Source of the DNA: Candidatus Methanoxibalbensis ujae
GTDB lineage: Archaea; Halobacteriota; Syntropharchaeia; Alkanophagales; Methanospirareceae
Direction: 5' to 3'
Assembly (NCBI GenBank): GCA_026134085.1
Contig: JAOQIN010000002.1
Location: 73,390-137,389, forward strand
Length of the DNA: 64,000 nucleotides
Each line of letters starts with the position of its first letter. Positions within the stretch are counted from its first letter, which is position 1. The notes under the pieces were generated by a model. The model had not been told where the DNA came from and did no database searches. It saw nothing but the letters and a program-made list of their open reading frames with translations. Made by a program: the position numbers and the translations under genes. Below are positions 7,988-30,520 of this stretch, piece after piece.

Positions 7988-9544
7988 TCACCTGATTTCA
8001 TATCCGAGCATCTCAAGACATTTTTTCAGACCCTCCTGCATGTCTCTCTCTGTATGAATCTCGTGGAAGTAAATGCCGATATGGGTCATTGTCTGGGCGA
8101 TTTCAGGGCGAATTCCGGTTATTATGCATGTGCATCCGAGAAGACTGGCAGCTTTTACCGTCTTCAAAAGATTGTTTGCAACTTCAGTGTCCATTGATGA
8201 TACTCCTGTTATATCAATAATGACAAATTCAGCCTGCGTCTTCGCGATTCTTTTGAGTAAAGTTTCCGTAATTTTCTGTGCGCGATAGCTGTCAACAACT
8301 CCTATCACGGGAAGAGCAAGTATTTTATCCCATATCTGAACAACAGGCGTCATCAGCTCCTCCTGTGCCGCTCTCAATCTATCGACGAGTTCTCTCAGCC
8401 TGTTTTCCATCTGTTTCTTTTCAGTTATGTCATATGCCGCGAAAAGGGCACCCCTCACAGAGCCATTATCAACAAAAGGTAAAGTGTATCCGAGCAGATG
8501 TATGACTTTTCCGTCTTTCGCATGCATGTGGAACTCAACACCTCTCACAATCTCTCCTCTCAGCGCTTTTTCAACGGAGGCCTGTGCATGCTCACGTGCC
8601 TTTTCAGCATCCCGGAAAAACTTTGCATCCTCAAATTTTTTTCCTTTCAATTCCTCCGATGATATGCCAAATATTTTCTCCGCGTAATTATTTATGTATA
8701 ATATACTGCCGTCGGCATCAGTCAACATTATGATGATGTTCTGCAGGGAATCCAAAATTTGCTTGTAATATCTGTGTGTTCTCTTCAACTCCTCCGTCAT
8801 CTGTTCAAAATCTGTGATGTCCTCCGCTTCAATGATCGCACCGCTTATCTCACCGCCGATTTCAACTGGAGCCGCATGAATTTTGACGGTTCTTTCCTCA
8901 CTTCCCTCCTCTGGCGGGCGCGCTCTCAGGATCGCTGTCACATGCTCCCCTGAAAGCGCTTTTTTCACCAGATCCGCAACCTTATCCCGAACATCATCTG
9001 AATATGAATAACAGGGAATATCTTCCAACGAAAGACCCTTTAATTGCTCCTCTGACATGCGGATTTTTTGAGGCACTTCCTTATTTGTATATACTATTCT
9101 GCCCTCTTTATCTGTCAAAAGGATGCATTCATGGAGGTTTTCAAGTATTTCTTCCATCAAACATTGATAATAATGCTCTTTTTCAACAGATTTCCCCTCA
9201 ACAACGACGCCTTTGACATCACCGCTGCTTTCGCTGTGCAGTGGCGAGATGTTGAGGATCATTGGGAATGTCCTGCCTGAGGGTTTCATCGCGTTCACCT
9301 CTATCTGAACGCTATCACCGCGCAATGCGCGCTCAAACGCCTCTTTCACCTCAGAAGCGACATGCTTGAAATGCATGCATTCCCAGATAGGCGTGCCCAT
9401 CACTTCATCCTCCCGATATCCGAGCGATTTCAGAAGGGATATCCTGTTTATGAATCTGAGTTTTCCCTCTCTGTCCAATACAGCTGCAAATGTGCTCATT
9501 GAGTTAAGCAGACTCAAATACTCAGACGCAGTCAGCTCTTCCAT
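7988..9544 (-). CDS. multi-PAS sensor protein with C-terminal STAS domain (RsbR-like)
   Basis: Three PAS-like segments and a coiled-coil linker. C-terminal STAS pattern: PVVQIWDKILALPVIGVVDSYRAQKITETLL .. FVIIDITGVSSMDTEVANNLL .. IITGIRPEIAQTM. Confidence 0.8.
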   Translation of the reverse strand: MEELTASEYLSLLNSMSTFAAVLDREGKLRFINRISLLKSLGYREDEVMGTPIWECMHFKHVASEVKEAFERALRGDSVQIEVNAMKPSGRTFPMILNISPLHSESSGDVKGVVVEGKSVEKEHYYQCLMEEILENLHECILLTDKEGRIVYTNKEVPQKIRMSEEQLKGLSLEDIPCYSYSDDVRDKVADLVKKALSGEHVTAILRARPPEEGSEERTVKIHAAPVEIGGEISGAIIEAEDITDFEQMTEELKRTHRYYKQILDSLQNIIIMLTDADGSILYINNYAEKIFGISSEELKGKKFEDAKFFRDAEKAREHAQASVEKALRGEIVRGVEFHMHAKDGKVIHLLGYTLPFVDNGSVRGALFAAYDITEKKQMENRLRELVDRLRAAQEELMTPVVQIWDKILALPVIGVVDSYRAQKITETLLKRIAKTQAEFVIIDITGVSSMDTEVANNLLKTVKAASLLGCTCIITGIRPEIAQTMTHIGIYFHEIHTERDMQEGLKKCLEMLGYEIR

Positions 9545-9662: not shown

Positions 9663-10001
9663 TCACAAAATCTCGCTGAGAACGAATATGTCTATTTCGT
9701 CAGCAAGCTCTTTAAAGCGCTCTTTAAACTCATTGAGCTTTTCAATTTTTTCTTTTTCCAAATTTATCTTTTTTATCTTGTCATCCACTTCCGCCTGTTT
9801 GTGAAATATGTCATAGATGAGTGAGAACATGCTCGGGCGCTCGCTCCTGAACTTTCGCAGGTCTTCCTGAATGTCTTTACCTTCTCTGAAATGCTCGAGC
9901 ACCATATCAAAATACGCGAAAATCTCTACAGCATCTTTGTAAAACTCATCCACAGCATATCTGAATGCTCTCGGCTCTATCTCACGCTCGGCAGATGCCA
10001 T
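9663..10001 (-). CDS. small helical protein of unknown function (paralog of 26344..26643)
   Basis: A gap-free hand alignment to ORF 26344..26643 gives about 36 identities over about 95 positions (FY.DA..IF..FD, LR.F, F.LI.D.F, EKI.K..EFK.R, L.DEI). No family recognised. Confidence 0.7.
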   Translation of the reverse strand: MASAEREIEPRAFRYAVDEFYKDAVEIFAYFDMVLEHFREGKDIQEDLRKFRSERPSMFSLIYDIFHKQAEVDDKIKKINLEKEKIEKLNEFKERFKELADEIDIFVLSEIL

Positions 10002-10159
10002 GATGGTATATTCGGAACATTATTTTATAGGGTTTTCGCTTTTTGCCTCCCTGCCTCCCGGGACCTCTGTCGTGACTTGATCCATACGGGTTCTGTTTGG
10101 GCTGTCCCTGAAATGACTGCTGAACCCGCATGAATGAGTTCACGCTCTCAGCGGATTTC

Positions 10160-20879: not shown

Positions 20880-21737
20880 TCTGTATGGAATCCATCACAG
20901 TTTCAGCATCAAAGTATTCCTGGCTCCGCTTATGGAAACATATCCATTGAGATCACTGGTCAGCTATTTTTTGGAACTTATCAACACCAACCGAGATAAC
21001 TTAAATCAATTTCTTTTCTCGTCTCATCAACATAATGCTTGGTTCTCATTTGTTCTTACGATCCCCGCAACAGCAGATACATGCATTTCCTTGATAGCAA
21101 TGATTAGTGCTTTATGTAAAGCCTGCTCCTTGACCATGGAACACAGTTTTCCATGTCCATCACACCTTATGGAATTTCTCCTCATAATAATTTTCCACCC
21201 CATTCATTGAGAGAGGAGATTACAAATGGAGCACAGAGGAGATTTCAGAAGGACCAGAAGGAGCACATCCAGAATCACCAGAAGAAGTGAAGTGGAGGCT
21301 CAAACTACAAGATTCCATCCAGAATATTTGCATAGCCCCATTCTTTGCTGCATATCTCAAATTCACAGAAGAGCACAAAATTTTTGTCAGGTTGATTGCT
21401 CCAGAAGACAATGAGAAGATTTTGCTTCTGGAATACAGGACGAGATTCCTCATACAAGAAGAAGTTGAAGAGGAAGCTTTCAGGAATTGGATTCAAGAGG
21501 TGCAGTGGTCTCACAATCACAACAGATTTGAATCAATACACCAACATCATAAGTGCAACAAAAGCAGTGAAGAAGAGATGGGACATTGTTTTAATTGAGG
21601 AGAGAGCTGGACAGATTCCACAGAATGGTTTAGCACCAGTGATGAGATTTCAGAGCAAGCAATGAATGAATACATGCGAGAGTGTCCATTTGATTTGATG
21701 TATGGGCATCCTCCAGATTCTCCTTTCTCTTTATTTT

Positions 21738-21800: not shown

Positions 21801-22469
21801 ATCTGGCATCAAAGGATGAGGTATTTGAGTATTTTGGAGTTTTCATTGGAAAAGGGACATGGAGCACCACACTATTTTGGACAATGTGTAAATATGGCAT
21901 AAGGATGATAAGAGAAGCACTTGACATTGCAAAATAATTCATGTGCGAAGGTATTTGAATACCAACATATTAAAATATGTGTTAGATTGTTCATGCATCA
22001 TTGTATTGGATTACAGGCTGTCATATGATTTCAATATCAAAGACTTTGCAGAAGGAGATAAAACAATAACAAAGACAAGAAAGACAATGAAGAGAAGAGG
22101 AGGAAAGGGGAATATGTTGCGACAGTTCCAACTGTTGTGAGAGAGCCATATCCGGAGATGACAGTCCAGATTCAATTGAGTTTGTATTACTGGAACCCTT
22201 GCATGCTTTAAGAAAACATACTCCTTTTGTATAGTGAGCAGCATTCAGGAAATTCAAATTTGAATTCCTTCTCATATGTATAGACTCGCCCTGCACATTC
22301 CAAGTCCTTGATGTACCATGGTGACCCAATTCCCAATGCCCCAATTCTCAATGCTATCTGAAATAGCTCTTCATCCCGCATGAAGAATATTAATTGAGGT
22401 TACCCAATGCTTAAGAGATCCGCAAATAAAAAAAAATAAAAAGAGGCATTGGCGAGGGAGGTGAGATAT

Positions 22470-22814
22470 ATGAGAATAGATGAATACAATTTCGGAAGGA
22501 TTGTTGTTGATGGAAAGGAATACACAGAGGACTTGATCATATTAACGGACAAAATAAAGGCAAACTGGTGGAGAAAAGAGGGCCATCTGCTGCTCAAAGA
22601 GGATATTGAGGATGTTATTGAGGAGGAGAAGCCAGAAATACTGATTGTAGGCACTGGTAAATACGGATACATGAAAATCGCTGATGAAACGCGTGAATAC
22701 GCAGCTGAGAAAGGCGTTGAAATAATCGCAGAGAGGACAGATGAGGCCTGCAGAATTTTCAACGAGCTCTCCGGTATGAAAAGAGTTGTCGCAGCACTGC
22801 ACTTGACATGCTGA
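22470..22814 (+). CDS. Mth938-like domain protein (DUF498)
   Basis: MRIDEYNFGRIVVDGKEY .. ILIVGTG .. C-terminal AALHLTC, colinear with the Mth938/AAMDC fold family as I recall it. Confidence 0.75.
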   Translation: MRIDEYNFGRIVVDGKEYTEDLIILTDKIKANWWRKEGHLLLKEDIEDVIEEEKPEILIVGTGKYGYMKIADETREYAAEKGVEIIAERTDEACRIFNELSGMKRVVAALHLTC

Positions 22815-24827: not shown

Positions 24828-25946
24828 TCACAGCAGTATCTGTATATCAAGCTTTTCAGAAAGTTCGCGGTAACGGTTTCTTATTGTGACCTCCGTCACA
24901 CCTGTTGCCTCTGATATTTCCTTCTGTGTGCGGTGCTTTCCGCTGAGTATCGCTGCAATATATATTGCGGCGGCTGCAACGCCTATGGGACCACGACCGT
25001 TCGTCAACTCCTTCTCCTGCGCCTTCTTTATGATTTCAATGGCCTTCGCACGGACATCTCCACCCAATCCCAATCTCGAGCAGAAACGAGGGACGAACTC
25101 AATAGGAGATGCAGGCGGAAGTTTTATGTCAAGCTCCCTCAAAATAAAGCGATACGCACGACTTATTTCTCTCTGAGAAACTCTTGAAACGGATTTTATT
25201 TCCTCAAGTGTGCGTGGAATGCCATACTGACGGCATGTTATATACAGAATGGCAGATGTTATACCCTCTATGCTCCGTCCTCTTATCAGATTCTTCTCCA
25301 TCACTTCTCTGTAAAGCTTTGCAGCAGCCTCTCTTATGTTCACCGGCAGCTTCAGCGCGGATGCCATACGATCAATCTCAGACAGCGCATATATGAAGCT
25401 GCGCTCCGTGGTGTTTGTGATGTGTGCGATGTGCCATCTTCCGAGCGGTTCCAGGCCCTTTGATGTGACGAGCGTGCTCAGACCCTTATCATGAATCCTA
25501 TATGTCATCGGCGCACCCACTCTCTCACGCTGAGATGCCTGCTCAAAATCAAAAGCACGCCACTCAGGTCCGAGATCAACAAGATTTTCCGCTATTACAA
25601 GACCACAATCCCCGCAGAACATCTCCGCCCTTTCATAATCCCACACGAGATTGCGTGAATGACACTCTGGACATTCTTTCACACGCTCCACTCCTCTCTC
25701 CTCTTCCCTCACAACATTCTCAGCTGCACGCCGATCTCTCTGCTCTTGCTGCTCTCTCTTTTCGTGCTTCTCAATCTTCTCAATGCTCATATTGTTCTCA
25801 TACTCCTTATCTCTCTCAATATCCCCCTCTTTCTCCCGCTTTATTTCTCCGCTCGCCTCCCTGTCATCTCTCCTATCATTATACACCAGCTGCTTATCCG
25901 CGTCTTCCGCTTCTTCATCCATAATATAATTTATAGATTTTTTCAA
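24828..25946 (-). CDS. tfb: transcription initiation factor TFB with roughly 90-aa charged N-terminal extension
   Basis: Zn ribbon [24 protein letters not shown], then GPEWRAF, two cyclin-fold repeats, and a C-terminal HTH ([19 protein letters not shown]). The Zn ribbon starts only around residue 92. Confidence 0.9.
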
Positions 25947-26046: not shown

Positions 26047-26229
26047 ATGAGAATTGAAGAATACTGGCTTGTGCCCGAATGACGCAGGAATGTATGGAGC
26101 AATGGAAGTAGGAAACTTGTGAGTGTATCTGCTCAAAATGCGTTGAAGTGATTGTTGAGCGGACAGGGAAGGCCTGCGAGATTTTCAACAGGACCTCAAG
26201 CGGTCGCAGCTCTGCACTTGACATGCTGA
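26047..26229 (+). pseudogene. decayed, internally deleted paralog of the Mth938-like gene
   Basis: It starts atgagaattgaagaatac (MRIEEY, compare MRIDEY at 22470) and has an early stop. The 3' part gttgaagtgattgttgagcggacaggg..attttcaac..gtcgcagctctgcacttgacatgctga parallels 22725-22814. Confidence 0.75.
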
Positions 26230-26343
26230 TGCAGTTCGTTGAGCGAAATTTATGTGAGATATTTTCAATTGAAATTATGGAAGAGGAAAAGGAGAAAGGG
26301 AGAGAGGAGGAAAAAGTGCCAGAGGGATTTCTAGCTAGAGGCG

Positions 26344-26643
26344 GTGAACAAGTTTTACGATGCCTATGATTTCATATTCAAGCGTTTTGACGAGATATAC
26401 ATGGATTACCTGCGTGGAGAAGATGTCAGAAAGCAATTAAGGAATTTTGAAAAGACAGCAGGAATCATATTTCTCCTGATCAGCGATCTCTTTTCAAGAG
26501 AGGAGAAAGTCAAGAAGTGGCTTGCTAAGGAGCATGTTGAGGAGGAGAAAATCCAAAAAATTATGGAATTTAAGAGGCGTTATTCAGGTTTAGAAGATGA
26601 AATAATAGCTTTCACATGGGAATCACTCGGATATTTCCATTAG
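26344..26643 (+). CDS. small helical protein (paralog of 9663..10001), first gene of the orphan operon
   Basis: GTG start with an upstream in-frame stop at 26332. The gap-free alignment to the 112-aa protein gives about 38 percent identity by hand count. Confidence 0.7.
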   Translation: MNKFYDAYDFIFKRFDEIYMDYLRGEDVRKQLRNFEKTAGIIFLLISDLFSREEKVKKWLAKEHVEEEKIQKIMEFKRRYSGLEDEIIAFTWESLGYFH

Positions 26644-26664
26644 ACGGATGTTTCAACAAGATAT

Positions 26665-26952
26665 ATGTTTGATATTAAGTATAAATTTCCTGTTATTGAA
26701 TTGCATCTTTTCTCTGGTTCAAGAGAAATATTACATTTGAGAGATCCAGTAACATCAGTATATCATCTGGCAAGAACGATTCAGGAAGAGGTAAAGAGAT
26801 GTCTCGGAGGAGTGAAAGGTTATGATATTGATCCGGATGAAATTAAGCATATAGAGGATGTTATGAGAGGAATAGAGTTGGATTTGGGGGAAATAAGAGA
26901 AATAATAGAAGAGATAAAGGGGAGGGAGGAGGAAGGGAGGAGAGTAAGATGA
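26665..26952 (+). CDS. hypothetical protein (orphan operon gene 2)
   Basis: 95-aa ORF starting 21 nt after gene 1. Its stop overlaps the gene 3 start (ATGA). No family recognised. Confidence 0.5.
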   Translation: MFDIKYKFPVIELHLFSGSREILHLRDPVTSVYHLARTIQEEVKRCLGGVKGYDIDPDEIKHIEDVMRGIELDLGEIREIIEEIKGREEEGRRVR

Positions 26953-27542
26953 GAGGAACGAGCGAGGCCTTTCCAGAAAGTTACAAGGAATGGATGAGAG
27001 AAGAAAAAGGGAGAGTAAAGGAGCCTTTCCCTGGAATTTTTAGAGAGAGGAAAAAAGATTTGGACATGCTCTCTAGGTATGTTTGGAAGGTCTATAGAGG
27101 AAGTTACTTGGAAGTAGGGAAAGAGGAGATGGAGTATTTGACAAGAACGCCACCAAGACCGACATCCATCTACAAAACTACTTTTGAACTGCGCCATCTT
27201 ATGAGGAAATTGGGAGAAGAATATACAGAGGAAACAGGCATTAGTGAGGAGAGAGCTTTTGAAGAACTGCGCAATCTTATGAGGAAATTGGAGAGGGGAG
27301 AAGTTTTAAATGCTGATGAAGTGGCGAGTTTGATGCGTATAGAGGAATTTGCCCGCAGCGAAGGGAGGGAAGAACTGCTGCGTGAGGTTGAAAGGGCATT
27401 CACAAAGCTTGGAGAATTAACAAAGAACCTTGCAGGGGAGCCTGAAAAGATGGAATTGAAGAGAGGGGAGATCAAGGAAATAGATGAAAACACACTTATT
27501 AGGCGAAGAAAGGATGGGAAGTCGGAACTTATACTTCTTTAA
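26949..27542 (+). CDS. hypothetical protein (orphan operon gene 3) with internal 28-nt direct repeat
   Basis: 197-aa ORF. gaactgcgc(c/a)atcttatgaggaaattgg occurs at 27186-27213 and at 27264-27291 (ELRHLMRKLG / ELRNLMRKLE). Confidence 0.6.
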   Translation: MRGTSEAFPESYKEWMREEKGRVKEPFPGIFRERKKDLDMLSRYVWKVYRGSYLEVGKEEMEYLTRTPPRPTSIYKTTFELRHLMRKLGEEYTEETGISEERAFEELRNLMRKLERGEVLNADEVASLMRIEEFARSEGREELLREVERAFTKLGELTKNLAGEPEKMELKRGEIKEIDENTLIRRRKDGKSELILL

Positions 27543-27547
27543 AGAAA

Positions 27548-27838
27548 ATGGTGGAAGAAATAGGCAAAGAATTAGGCAAAGAACTGGCAGGAGAAATAAT
27601 AAGGGGGGTAAGTGAAAGGAAAGAAGAAGATTTCTTCAAGGAATGCGATACTTGGTGGAAGGAACGAGGTATATTTAGACCTAAAATACTCTTTGTGCAT
27701 AAGTATGCCGATTATATAGATATATGGGAAGCGGAATGGGGTAGAAGTGTGAATATCAGGTATATTAAGAGAATACCTTTGGGAACGAATATTTTTCCGA
27801 CAAGCAATAATTTACACCGCTCAATGTCCGGGATGTGA
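27548..27838 (+). CDS. hypothetical protein (orphan operon gene 4)
   Basis: 96-aa ORF starting 5 nt after gene 3. Trp/Tyr-rich core (CDTWWKERGIF..YIDIWEAEWGRS). Confidence 0.5.
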   Translation: MVEEIGKELGKELAGEIIRGVSERKEEDFFKECDTWWKERGIFRPKILFVHKYADYIDIWEAEWGRSVNIRYIKRIPLGTNIFPTSNNLHRSMSGM

Positions 27839-28088
27839 TCGGAGAGACAAAGTGGTTCGCATTAGTGCAAGCTGAAGTTTAGCCGCACTCTAAGGAGCAT
27901 AACGGATTGGGAATTGGGAACTTCTGCGGGATTCTGAGTGCTTTGCATCCGAGAATCTGAATCACAGAATAAGAAGGGAAAGAGCTATTGAGGAAGCGGA
28001 AGGGTTCTGTGGAGAGATGGATTAATAAGCTTTACAGGAAACCTGTCTCCTGCACCTCTGCTCTCCCAGAGTAAGAGCTGGCAGGCGT

Positions 28089-28122
28089 GATGTCTGTGTG
28101 CCGGATGTCTGTGTGCCGGATG
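28089..28122. repeat. perfect 15-nt x2 (+4 nt) tandem duplication upstream of fbp
   Basis: gatgtctgtgtgccg occurs twice, followed by gatg. Confidence 0.95.
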
Positions 28123-28233
28123 ATCCGACCGCCCGTGGGAGGGATGTGGGGCCTGTCCAGCTTTGAATCCTTCCGTCCGTGAGGGAGATCTACTTTTTCA
28201 CTCATCTCAACATTCTTTTTCACCCATCTCAAC

Positions 28234-28241
28234 CTTTATAC
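28234..28241 (+). promoter_or_regulatory. TATA-box-like element upstream of fbp
   Basis: ctttatac lies about 26-33 nt upstream of ATG 28267. It is preceded by a duplicated cac(t/c)catctcaac motif. Confidence 0.35.
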
Positions 28242-28266
28242 AGTTGAAAAAAAATGGAAATCAGAA

Positions 28267-29382: not shown

Positions 29383-29497
29383 ACTCTTTTTTTTGTTTAT
29401 TTTTTATTTTTATTTTTTATTTTTTATTTTTTTATTTTACTTTTTAAGCATACGAAAGGACAGGTTTCTCATCTGTTCAGCAGGATTTCAGAGAAAG
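29341..29497 (+). repeat. parent copy of the inverted repeat (fbp 3' end plus intergenic motif)
   Basis: 29341-29370 and 29464-29497 match the reverse complement of 21738-21800. Here the two blocks are separated by about 93 nt (the end of fbp plus a T-rich tract) that is absent from the 21.7-kb copy. Confidence 0.85.
29386..29455 (+). terminator. long T-rich tract with tttttat-type periodicity downstream of fbp
   Basis: ttttttttgtttattttttatttttattttttattttttatttttttattttacttttt immediately follows the fbp stop. Oligo-T is the archaeal terminator signal. Confidence 0.5.
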
Positions 29498-29514
29498 AGG
29501 AGAAGGAGGAGAAA

Positions 29515-29586
29515 GAAAATAAAGAGAACAGGGAGAATAAAGAGAACAAAGAGAATAAGGAGAACAAAGAGAACAGAGAGGGGAAA
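29515..29586. repeat. purine-rich 18-nt tandem repeat (3-4 imperfect units) just upstream of dys
   Basis: gaaaataaagagaacagg / gagaataaagagaacaaa / gagaataaggagaacaaa / gagaacagagaggggaaa. Confidence 0.8.
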
Positions 29587-29593
29587 GAGAGAG

Positions 29594-30520
29594 ATGAGAA
29601 AAAGCCAGGTGCATGGCATTCAAGTGAAATGTGGGATGAGTGTTGATGATCTCGTGAAAGGCATGGGGGCATGTGCATTCGGTGCTCGTCGTATTGCCGA
29701 ATCAGTTGACATATATGAGGAGATGATACTTGAAAATGCGAGGATATTTCTCGGAGTAGCCGGTGCTCTCGTCCCCGCTGGAATGCGACCTGTCATTGCT
29801 GAAATGCTCAGGCTTCATTTTGCGGATGTCCTCGTGACGACGGGTGCAAACATAGTTCATGACATCATAGAAGCGCTTGGCGAGCATCATTATGTGCAGA
29901 TGCAGCACAGAGACGACGCATATCTGCGGAAAATGGGGACAAGCAGAATATATGATGTTGTTGTGAGCGATAAGGCATTTGAAAAGCTTGAGGAATTCAT
30001 GCATAACACATTCAGATCTCTCAAATCTGAAAAATACAGCATACGCGAGCTGTTATGGGAGATGGGAAGAAGAATAAATGATGAACATTCAATACTTCAT
30101 GTGGCATATGAAAATAAGATTCCTGTATTCTGTCCTTCTCTCGCTGATTCGATGATAGGGTTGCATGCCTTCATCTTCAAGCAGATTTCGCAGCTGAATG
30201 TTGATGCATTTGACGACATGCGAGATATAAACGAGATTTTCTGCAGTTCAGAGCGAGTGGGAGCTGTCATACTCGGCGGAGGCGTTCCTAAGAACTTCAT
30301 CCTTCAGACAGCACTCGTAGCTCCGAGAGGAGGTTTTGACTATGCGATCCAGATAACCACGAGAACGCCTGAGGACGGAAGTCTGAGTGGAGCAACGCTT
30401 GAAGAAGCGGTTTCATGGGGAAAACTGCGTGAGAATGCAAAATTCGTCACTGTGTATTGTGATGCGACAATAGCACTTCCAATAATCATCGCAGCACTAA
30501 GAGAGCGCCTGAGGCGTTAG
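29594..30520 (+). CDS. dys: deoxyhypusine synthase
   Basis: Starts MRKSQVHGIQV. Contains the GALVPAGMR, TTGANIVHD and ILGGGVPKNF patterns. About 308 aa. The upstream part of the track ORF (29183-29593) is rejected. Confidence 0.88.
   Translation: MRKSQVHGIQVKCGMSVDDLVKGMGACAFGARRIAESVDIYEEMILENARIFLGVAGALVPAGMRPVIAEMLRLHFADVLVTTGANIVHDIIEALGEHHYVQMQHRDDAYLRKMGTSRIYDVVVSDKAFEKLEEFMHNTFRSLKSEKYSIRELLWEMGRRINDEHSILHVAYENKIPVFCPSLADSMIGLHAFIFKQISQLNVDAFDDMRDINEIFCSSERVGAVILGGGVPKNFILQTALVAPRGGFDYAIQITTRTPEDGSLSGATLEEAVSWGKLRENAKFVTVYCDATIALPIIIAALRERLRR

Follow-up and report, generated by a model that had tools for sequence, protein, structure and literature searches.

An apparent four-gene operon in Candidatus Methanoxibalbensis ujae is probably a degraded copy of a lineage-restricted three-gene cassette

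Two kinds of described system invite comparison with the locus considered here: type II toxin-antitoxin (TA) pairs such as RelBE, VapBC and HicAB, and the hsdS genes of type I restriction-modification (R-M) systems together with polymorphic toxin/immunity loci. Clusters of orphan genes are common, and in the ANME-1 archaea, which are uncultured key players in marine methane oxidation, most of the accessory genome is unannotated. The locus lies in a 64,000-nucleotide stretch of contig JAOQIN010000002.1 from Candidatus Methanoxibalbensis ujae (hereafter the window), whose host belongs to the ANME-1c group (Methanophagales). An initial annotation made from the letters alone had described positions 26344-27838 of the window (locus tags OCU22_01140-01155) as a four-gene operon of small proteins and a candidate for an undescribed system. 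Comparison with other genomes suggests that this proposal stands in so far as there is a genuine, uncharacterised and conserved cassette, but needs amending in that the cassette has three genes, here called A, B and C, and that the window copy is partly a pseudogene. We put at about 0.6 the joint probability that the locus is a degraded copy of an A-B-C cassette, that B serves as an adaptor between A and C, and that the whole is a dispensable accessory or conflict-type module.

The four open reading frames (ORFs) all lie on the forward strand and measure 99, 95, 197 and 96 aa: ORF1 (26344-26643, with a GTG start), ORF2 (26665-26952), ORF3 or gene B (26949-27542) and ORF4 or gene C (27548-27838). 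The spacings between them are 21, -4 and 5 nt; these coordinates and spacings were reproduced, and every sequence feature listed by the initial annotation was found to be present. Its reading as an operon of four genes did not survive, in that ORF1 and ORF2 are pieces of one gene. A DNA alignment of the window with the locus as recovered in three further assemblies (L001-L003) located a tandem duplication of CTAG (26331-26338, forward strand), reading TTTCTAGCTAGAGG here and TTTCTAGAGG elsewhere, which shifts the frame after codon 19 of A. When one CTAG copy is deleted, the disrupted gene (26277-26952, forward strand) reconstructs to a frame of 223 codons starting at the ATG at 26277 and comprising a helical N-terminal domain and a beta/alpha C-terminal domain, and the sole remaining defect is a TAG nonsense codon (26641-26643, forward strand) that replaces a conserved Trp at the linker between the domains. 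ORF1 corresponds to the helical domain without its conserved first ~22 residues and ORF2 to the C-terminal domain; the 5' part of a 73-aa ORF at 26148-26369 is also a fragment of gene A. The CTAG duplication is common only to the window, L002 and L003, which are three independent assemblies, and the TAG allele is found in two of these (the window and L003; L001 and L002 have TGG), so the lesions are real lineage markers and not assembly noise.

Homologues elsewhere bear out the reconstruction. The 90% cluster of ORF1 includes members of 154, 202 and 262 aa that continue through into ORF2, and P0007 and P0003 span both ORFs as one reading frame. The seven cluster representatives that diverge further (77-91% identity) all encode A as one uninterrupted ORF of 220-244 aa with a common conserved N-terminus, M.EEKEEGREEEEVPEGFLEAVNKF, and the position of the window's TAG is occupied by Trp in six and by Leu in the seventh. 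More distant homologues of 220-242 aa (L008, L030 and L033) align over both halves of A at 29-40% identity (E 2e-28 to 8e-48). Judged from these alignments, ORF1 and ORF2 are clearly the two domains of a single gene, and the form typical of the family, one ORF of ~220 aa with an EVPEGF...DYLRG(K/E)D N-domain and a beta/alpha C-domain, is lacking in the window. With a frameshift and a nonsense codon interrupting the sequence that remains, the window copy of A is a pseudogene. Damage to A has also arisen more than once: the window lineage carries three independent lesions, one of them a nonsense codon in L013 that differs from the window's TAG and lies eight codons upstream of it, and L035 has a separate frameshift. 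AlphaFold2 (AF2) modelled the N-domain, the ORF1 part, as a confident helical bundle (pLDDT 81-95) and the ORF2 part poorly, with three strands and two helices.

One could still imagine a working operon of four genes, in which the splitting of A does no harm or even brings a benefit, with ORF1 and ORF2 encoding separate functional domain proteins. The TAG falls exactly at the inter-domain linker with an in-frame ATG seven codons downstream, the two halves carry no further damage, the allele recurs in two independent assemblies, and the N-domain does stand alone in the same genome as a 112-aa paralogue. We nevertheless consider this quite unlikely. The frameshift cuts off the conserved N-terminal motif of A (invariant P15, F18 and V22 in alignment A7), and translation from the native ATG yields only a 30-aa peptide; a Shine-Dalgarno-like GGAGG precedes B, but no such sequence precedes the ATG of ORF2 or the GTG of ORF1. 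In addition, A is a single ORF in the seven cluster representatives and in four distant lineages, and the nonsense codon of L013 looks like a random knock-out and not like a designed split. The sequence comparisons led us to reject a reading of the TAG as pyrrolysine: TGG stands at this position in sister strains, Trp in the cluster representatives (Leu in one), and L013 has another nonsense codon nearby. The lesion TTTCTAGCTAGAGG (26328-26341) is what would result if a 4-nt 5' overhang at TCTAGA were filled in and the ends rejoined, and replication slippage is equally able to explain it. As for the stand-alone paralogue (9663-10001, reverse strand; 35% identity to ORF1, E 2e-12), the initial annotation had rightly placed a relative of its first gene beside a STAS sensor: it precedes, by 118 nt, a PAS-PAS-STAS protein (7988-9544, reverse strand), which hints that the family may act with signalling or partner-switching proteins.

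Twenty-seven loci were classified, comprising the window and 26 that were fetched. A (~220 aa), B (~155-218 aa) and C (~63-82 aa) form a conserved, lineage-restricted three-gene cassette, known from a few heat-loving archaea of the methane cycle, of which B-C is the invariant core. The order A-B-C recurs in ANME-1c, in an Archaeoglobaceae metagenome-assembled genome (MAG; L008) and in several metagenome contigs, with A and B at 29-49% identity, and the homologues retain their length, order and domain structure. Conservation of gene order in other genomes, which the initial annotation had singled out as a check, was thus found, the cassette recurring as a unit, and none of its genes was assigned to a housekeeping family. 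A, B and C measure 228, 183 and 79 aa in L008, 220, 215 and 71 aa in the metagenome contig L030, and 242, 218 and 68 aa in L033, and both order and spacing of the trio are kept in these, in the ANME-1c loci and in L034, L035-37 and L031. In some of the loci A is incomplete or absent: L031 and L032 have a C-terminal fragment of A followed by genes of 179 and 63 aa, L035-37 have a frameshifted A followed by a gene of 186 aa and an intact but uncalled C, and L038 has an unrelated 231-aa gene in place of A together with an unrelated N-half of B. The C-terminal module of B (C-module) and the C of L038 are close to those of L008 (116 bits for the C-module). B and C are separated by 5-9 nt or overlap in the window, the ANME-1c loci, L008, L030, L031, L033, L035 and L038. 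Each lineage has its own set of chromosomal neighbours, for the most part housekeeping genes (TFB, Endo_dU, FBPase, DUF498, SepSecS-like, FrhB, ProRS, PGDH and similar), and a profile scan of genome contigs returned the Archaeoglobaceae MAG as its sole match. In that MAG, a 52-aa protein 3' of the cassette (9847-10005) resembles a ribbon-helix-helix (RHH) protein by eye and has no Pfam match; the cassette is preceded there by a tight array of unannotated genes, including one for an 805-aa Ig-like/CarboxypepD_reg protein, which may be a mobile or viral neighbourhood.

Within ANME-1c the cassette normally lies directly 3' of an intact DUF498 gene and takes two forms. The long form, DUF498-A-B-C, in which B joins an N-terminal module, N1, to the C-module, is found in L014, L017 and L028, the last of which ends in an alternative B C-terminus with no C seen there. 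The short form, DUF498-B'-C, in which B' joins a different module, N2, to the C-module, is found in L004-6, L018 and L022-26, and the short-form layout without detectable N2 is found in L015, L016, L021 and L024. A accompanies N1 in all 14 long-form loci (13 fetched and the window) and is present in no short form. Both forms share a conserved 5' part, made up of a TATA-like box and the first ~12 codons and preceded by the likewise conserved 3' end of DUF498, such that short forms keep the start of A; the 3' end formed by the C-module and C is also constant. The cassette therefore has ends that are constant and a middle that varies, the latter being either the rest of A with the N-half of B or a short coiled-coil. 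In L007 and L020, whose housekeeping flanks are 99-100% identical to those of the window lineage, an A-less short form occupies the same site, which argues for allele replacement within a species.

It is in this design that the cassette resembles hsdS genes and polymorphic toxin/immunity loci, since it too has conserved ends around alternative middle segments, different alleles at one site between near-identical flanks, and short repeats at the junctions between modules. It differs from them in that no homology, no nearby recombinase or invertase and no silent cassettes were seen, and its exchange is inferred from the comparison of strains and was not observed within one genome. The closed genome of Ca. 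Methanospirare jalkutatii holds a 16.5-kb region with the cassette twice and in opposite orientation (L005 and L006; CP110382.1, 59977-76528 and 1082159-1098710), with identical called gene coordinates and product lengths, a doubling explained either by a large inverted duplication in the genome or by an artefact of assembly.

Gene B, which is intact in the window at 197 aa, is itself a mosaic of two modules. N1 (26949-27248, forward strand) is variable and always accompanies A, whereas the C-module (27249-27542, forward strand) is conserved, with three helices and three strands and the signature KLERGEVLNADE...ELKKGEIKEIDENTLIRRRKDGK.ELILL. Two 28-nt direct repeats (27186-27213 and 27264-27291, forward strand; ELRHLMRKL and ELRNLMRKL), which had already been noticed inside this gene and which agree at 27 of 28 bases, flank the linker between the modules, and the junctions of other B variants map there. 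N1 (residues ~1-100) reappears with wholly different C-termini (P0047, P0085/87; P0043/44), and the C-module (~101-197) reappears at 90-96% identity behind unrelated, fast-varying coiled-coil N-termini; short-form B proteins have 167-173 aa, OCU16_00785 of Ca. Methanospirare jalkutatii being an example. In P0108 the N-terminus of A is fused directly to the C-module. When the C-module profile was run exhaustively against 1.84 billion representatives, only 26 proteins were returned at E <= 1e-3, and these form a coherent domain family of ~95 aa, some members of which stand alone. Residues 101-197 of the window's ORF3 satisfy its consensus, KL..GE.L..DE...(I/V)EID...ELK.GEIKE.DE...(I/V)R+RKDG..E.I.L, and the reading frame of the module is open in the window and in all 25 fetched loci that cover it. 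The AF2 model of B is poor (pLDDT 52), with helices and a three-stranded sheet.

Gene C fares less well. A small (63-82 aa), beta-rich protein directly after B is the mark of the family, and ORF4 lies 5 nt downstream of B as expected, but a deletion of 6 nt at about 27786 took out its native stop and lengthened it to 96 aa, where homologues have 79-82 aa and end in ...PLGTE and a stop. Six of the 15 complete copies of C are disrupted (L001, L020, L007, L021, L025 and L026). We estimated dN/dS, the ratio of non-synonymous to synonymous substitution rates, by the Nei-Gojobori method over intact copies and obtained 0.46 for A, 0.29 for the C-module of B, 0.58-0.68 for C and 1.18 (about 1.2) for N1, with 0.18, 0.08 and about 0 for the neighbouring DUF498, TFB and FBPase genes. 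Given the values of 0.46 and 0.29, purifying selection acts on A and the C-module; the constraint on C is weak, and N1 evolves either neutrally or under diversifying selection. At the site between TFB and FBPase, no allele spanning the full cassette is free of a broken gene: the gene affected is A in the window, L002, L003 and L013 and C in L001 and L020, and in L007 the damage is to both the 5' end of B and C.

These features make a type II TA pair the closest behavioural analogue. B and C are small, co-oriented, adjacent and translationally coupled, with a gap of 5-9 nt or an overlap in every lineage; the cassette varies between strains and is scattered over different chromosomal locations in different lineages; and the downstream gene, C, is recurrently and selectively inactivated while the C-module always remains an open frame. 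It may be, then, that B-C is a novel TA-like pair in which C would be the toxin, B the antitoxin by way of its C-module, and A an accessory or regulatory partner, but on balance we think this unlikely. None of the three proteins matches a toxin superfamily (RelE/ParE, MazF, PIN, HicA, HEPN, Doc) in Pfam, NCBIfam or PADLOC, nor is there any resemblance to antitoxin families in these databases, and B has no RHH, helix-turn-helix (HTH), AbrB or Phd/YefM domain according to Pfam and to Foldseek, the latter a weak test as it was run on a low-confidence model. The upstream module, the putative antitoxin, is more conserved than the downstream putative toxin (dN/dS 0.29 vs about 0.6), the reverse of the usual pattern. 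The cassette also has a third and larger gene, A, which is often broken too, a result that a TA pair does not predict, and no mobile-element context was found. Membership of the type II TA systems therefore fails on family, on DNA binding and on the pattern of conservation.

The degraded A-B-C cassette that we favour would work differently. A, B and C would form a single working complex in which B is a bipartite adaptor: the conserved C-module would pair with C, and the exchangeable N-half with A. This idea is supported by the joint gain, loss or replacement of A and the N-half of B (the ANME-1c short forms and L038), by fusions of A to B (the retained start of A in short forms, and P0108) and by the invariant linkage of B and C. 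The cassette is probably dispensable, evolves fast, has moved between chromosomal sites and is repeatedly knocked out, and it is this dispensability and mobility, with the diversifying middle and the recurrent knock-outs, that points to an accessory or conflict-type rather than a housekeeping role. Its variation between strains, its differing sites and its frequent inactivation are also reminiscent of selfish modules. In the window genome probably only B, and perhaps C, would still yield a normal protein.

Several points weigh against this picture. The co-variation on which the adaptor model draws comes from no more than two or three replacement events that are independent of each other; the AF2 models are weak except for the N-domain of A, and Foldseek gave no fold match that might hint at an activity. 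When C of ANME-1 was compared with C of the other lineages by hhalign, the result was an E of 0.014 and a probability of 3%. The decay at the TFB/FBPase site could be mere relaxed selection after relocation and have nothing to do with a conflict role, and a split A could still function as two polypeptides. A more specific version of the model can be put forward only tentatively: that thermophilic methane-cycling archaea possess in A-B-C a conflict module of three components not described before, akin to addiction or defence systems, in which the C-module would control C, A and the N-half of B would set specificity, and strains would diversify the module or switch it off by swaps or by knock-out of A or C.

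Three new protein families that travel together over at least six divergent lineages are nonetheless a defined object with a testable interaction model. If the cassette is a true conflict or addiction module, it would be a new type of archaeal system, and one by which strain-level dynamics could be followed in hydrothermal sediments; if it is not, it offers a clean example of how pseudogene fragments in a MAG can pass for a multi-gene operon. With archaeal ORFan clusters in general it shares the lack of a family assignment, a narrow taxonomic range, low GC content at third codon positions (GC3) and weak constraint. It differs in being conserved as a unit over several divergent lineages with a defined modular architecture, and its constant-variable-constant design, its within-species allele swapping and its recurrent knock-outs set it apart from ordinary orphan clusters.

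Database searches agree with the initial annotation that no recognised family is involved: the four ORFs have no match in Pfam, PHROGs, PADLOC or NCBIfam, and the distant homologues gave only sub-threshold noise against family databases. With PADLOC-DB v2 the best E values for nine proteins were 0.011-0.022 over short stretches, and no defence HMM was matched significantly; among the neighbours examined across loci there are no defence genes beside the cassette, which does not lie in a defence island. Foldseek searches of PDB and BFVD returned nothing at E < 0.01, and overlaps of a 25-residue hairpin with Hfq and RNAP were dismissed, as were profile matches of the A and B alignments in PDB, which were to de novo designed helical bundles only and were taken as a composition artefact. 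Among the papers listed by literature searches on Methanoxibalbensis and on Mth938 in archaea, no title or abstract concerned these proteins. As far as such searches can tell, A, B and C belong to no described family and are three new protein families; the newness of the cassette, which is known here from sequence alone and in a degraded window copy, lies in this lack of a matching family or fold.

The same searches bear on two further explanations. That the ORFs are chance frames in purine-rich non-coding DNA might be suspected from a forward strand that is 65% purine, from low-complexity, highly charged proteins and from family searches that were all negative. Homologues at 29-49% identity with length, order and domains kept, dN/dS below 0.5 for A and the C-module, the confident AF2 model of the A N-domain and the recovery of a coherent domain family by profile search all speak against it, and on these conservation data the chance-frame reading can be taken as effectively refuted. 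The second explanation is that the cassette is the eroding remnant of a virus, plasmid or integrated element in the host chromosome. Its low GC and GC3, a site that differs by lineage, its widespread decay, its setting in L008 among unannotated small ORFs and beside the RHH-like (by eye) 52-aa protein, and, about 4.6-5.1 kb upstream of the cassette, the frameshifted copy of an ORF bearing an HLHILL motif would all be in keeping with this, but it strikes us as very unlikely. There are no PHROG relatives; profile scans of IMG/VR with B and A found no relatives either, and a tblastn search of INPHARED with A, B and C over 50,697 phage and archaeal-virus records found none. The 64-kb window has no tRNA gene, the immediately adjacent genes include no integrase, and the cassette borders show no att-like direct repeats, the only flanking inverted repeat being a 15-nt T/A run; most loci have housekeeping flanks. 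The earlier suggestion that such a cassette is typical of toxin-antitoxin, defence or mobile-element modules therefore found no backing in PADLOC, PHROGs, IMG/VR, INPHARED or the flanking genes.

The initial annotation had also noted an AT-richer composition and a horizontally acquired look. The cassette is indeed AT-richer than its surroundings (GC 0.396 against a window mean of 0.469, within the lowest 1.4% of 1.5-kb windows), with a GC3 of 0.29-0.44 compared with 0.44-0.57 in adjacent genes. However, Glu, Lys, Arg and Asp make up 33-42% of the residues of the cassette proteins, and the low GC stems in part from this charged-residue content, which is not a matter of foreign origin, and in part from lower GC3. 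In the window lineage the block sits between the genes for TFB and FBP aldolase/phosphatase, and the genes directly adjoining it (Endo_dU, TFB and FBP aldolase/phosphatase) are housekeeping genes.

Upstream, the Mth938-like pseudogene reported earlier is real. A remnant of a DUF498/Mth938 paralogue (26047-26229, forward strand) was identified by three-frame translation and by its match to the intact DUF498 genes that precede other ANME-1c cassettes; it consists of the pieces MRIEEY, GMYGAMEV, VEVIVERTGKACEIFN and AVAALHLTC with a stop, in different frames, with a frameshift and a large internal deletion, and so lacks the intact ORF of ~114 aa that defines the family (PF04430). An intact paralogue in the window (22449-22814) matches the family, as do intact copies in L004, L017 and others. 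The cassette thus keeps its place directly downstream of DUF498 in the window as in ANME-1c generally, but A, B and C are not themselves DUF498 proteins, and the adjacency is absent in those non-ANME lineages that have upstream sequence (L008, L033, L035 and L038). We know of no established function for DUF498 in archaea. Between the remnant and A lies a promoter-like element (26241-26258, forward strand) that reads GAGCGAAA[GATT]TTTATGTGAG in an alignment of 22 loci, the window lineage having a 4-nt deletion within it. Its TATA-like box, GAAAGATTTTTATGTG, stands ~27-30 nt before the ATG of A and is conserved in long and short forms, and the element may well function as the promoter of a leaderless mRNA.

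Downstream, the non-coding stretch with tandem repeats put earlier at some 430 nt is a spacer of 428 nt (27839-28266) before the FBP aldolase/phosphatase gene, and it is probably not part of the cassette. It holds a perfect 15-nt tandem duplication (28089-28118; GATGTCTGTGTGCCG twice) and a 22-nt tandem duplication (28193-28236; CTTTTTCACYCATCTCAACMTT twice), both just upstream of the start of that gene, where they may represent duplications within the promoter region. The idea that the spacer harbours a structured RNA or riboswitch was considered and rejected, there being no Rfam match and a fold z-score of -1.46.

A few observations concern other parts of the window. At 21226-21665, within a low-GC stretch at 20.5-22.4 kb, overlapping frameshifted ORF fragments (…NEKILLLEYRTRF… and …SYKKKLKRKLSGIGFKRCSGLTITTDLNQY…) match an intact 172-aa ORF in L007 (2965-3483), which is followed by a 94-aa ORF. 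At its end the 172-aa ORF carries an HLHILL motif that recalls HUH replication proteins. There was no PHROG match, and the fragments may be a decayed mobile-element gene adjoining the intact DUF498. The TFB gene (24828-25946, reverse strand) has a highly charged N-terminal extension of ~90 aa before its zinc ribbon, and its called length is 352, 362, 364 and 372 aa in L002, L007, L003 and the window, respectively. Finally, a GC dip (0.39) at 29400-29620 coincides with a run encoding RKRRRRRKKIKRTGRIKRTKRIRRTKRTERGKRE in a long ORF that precedes a deoxyhypusine synthase domain, and this run is probably a repetitive intergenic spacer read as an ORF.

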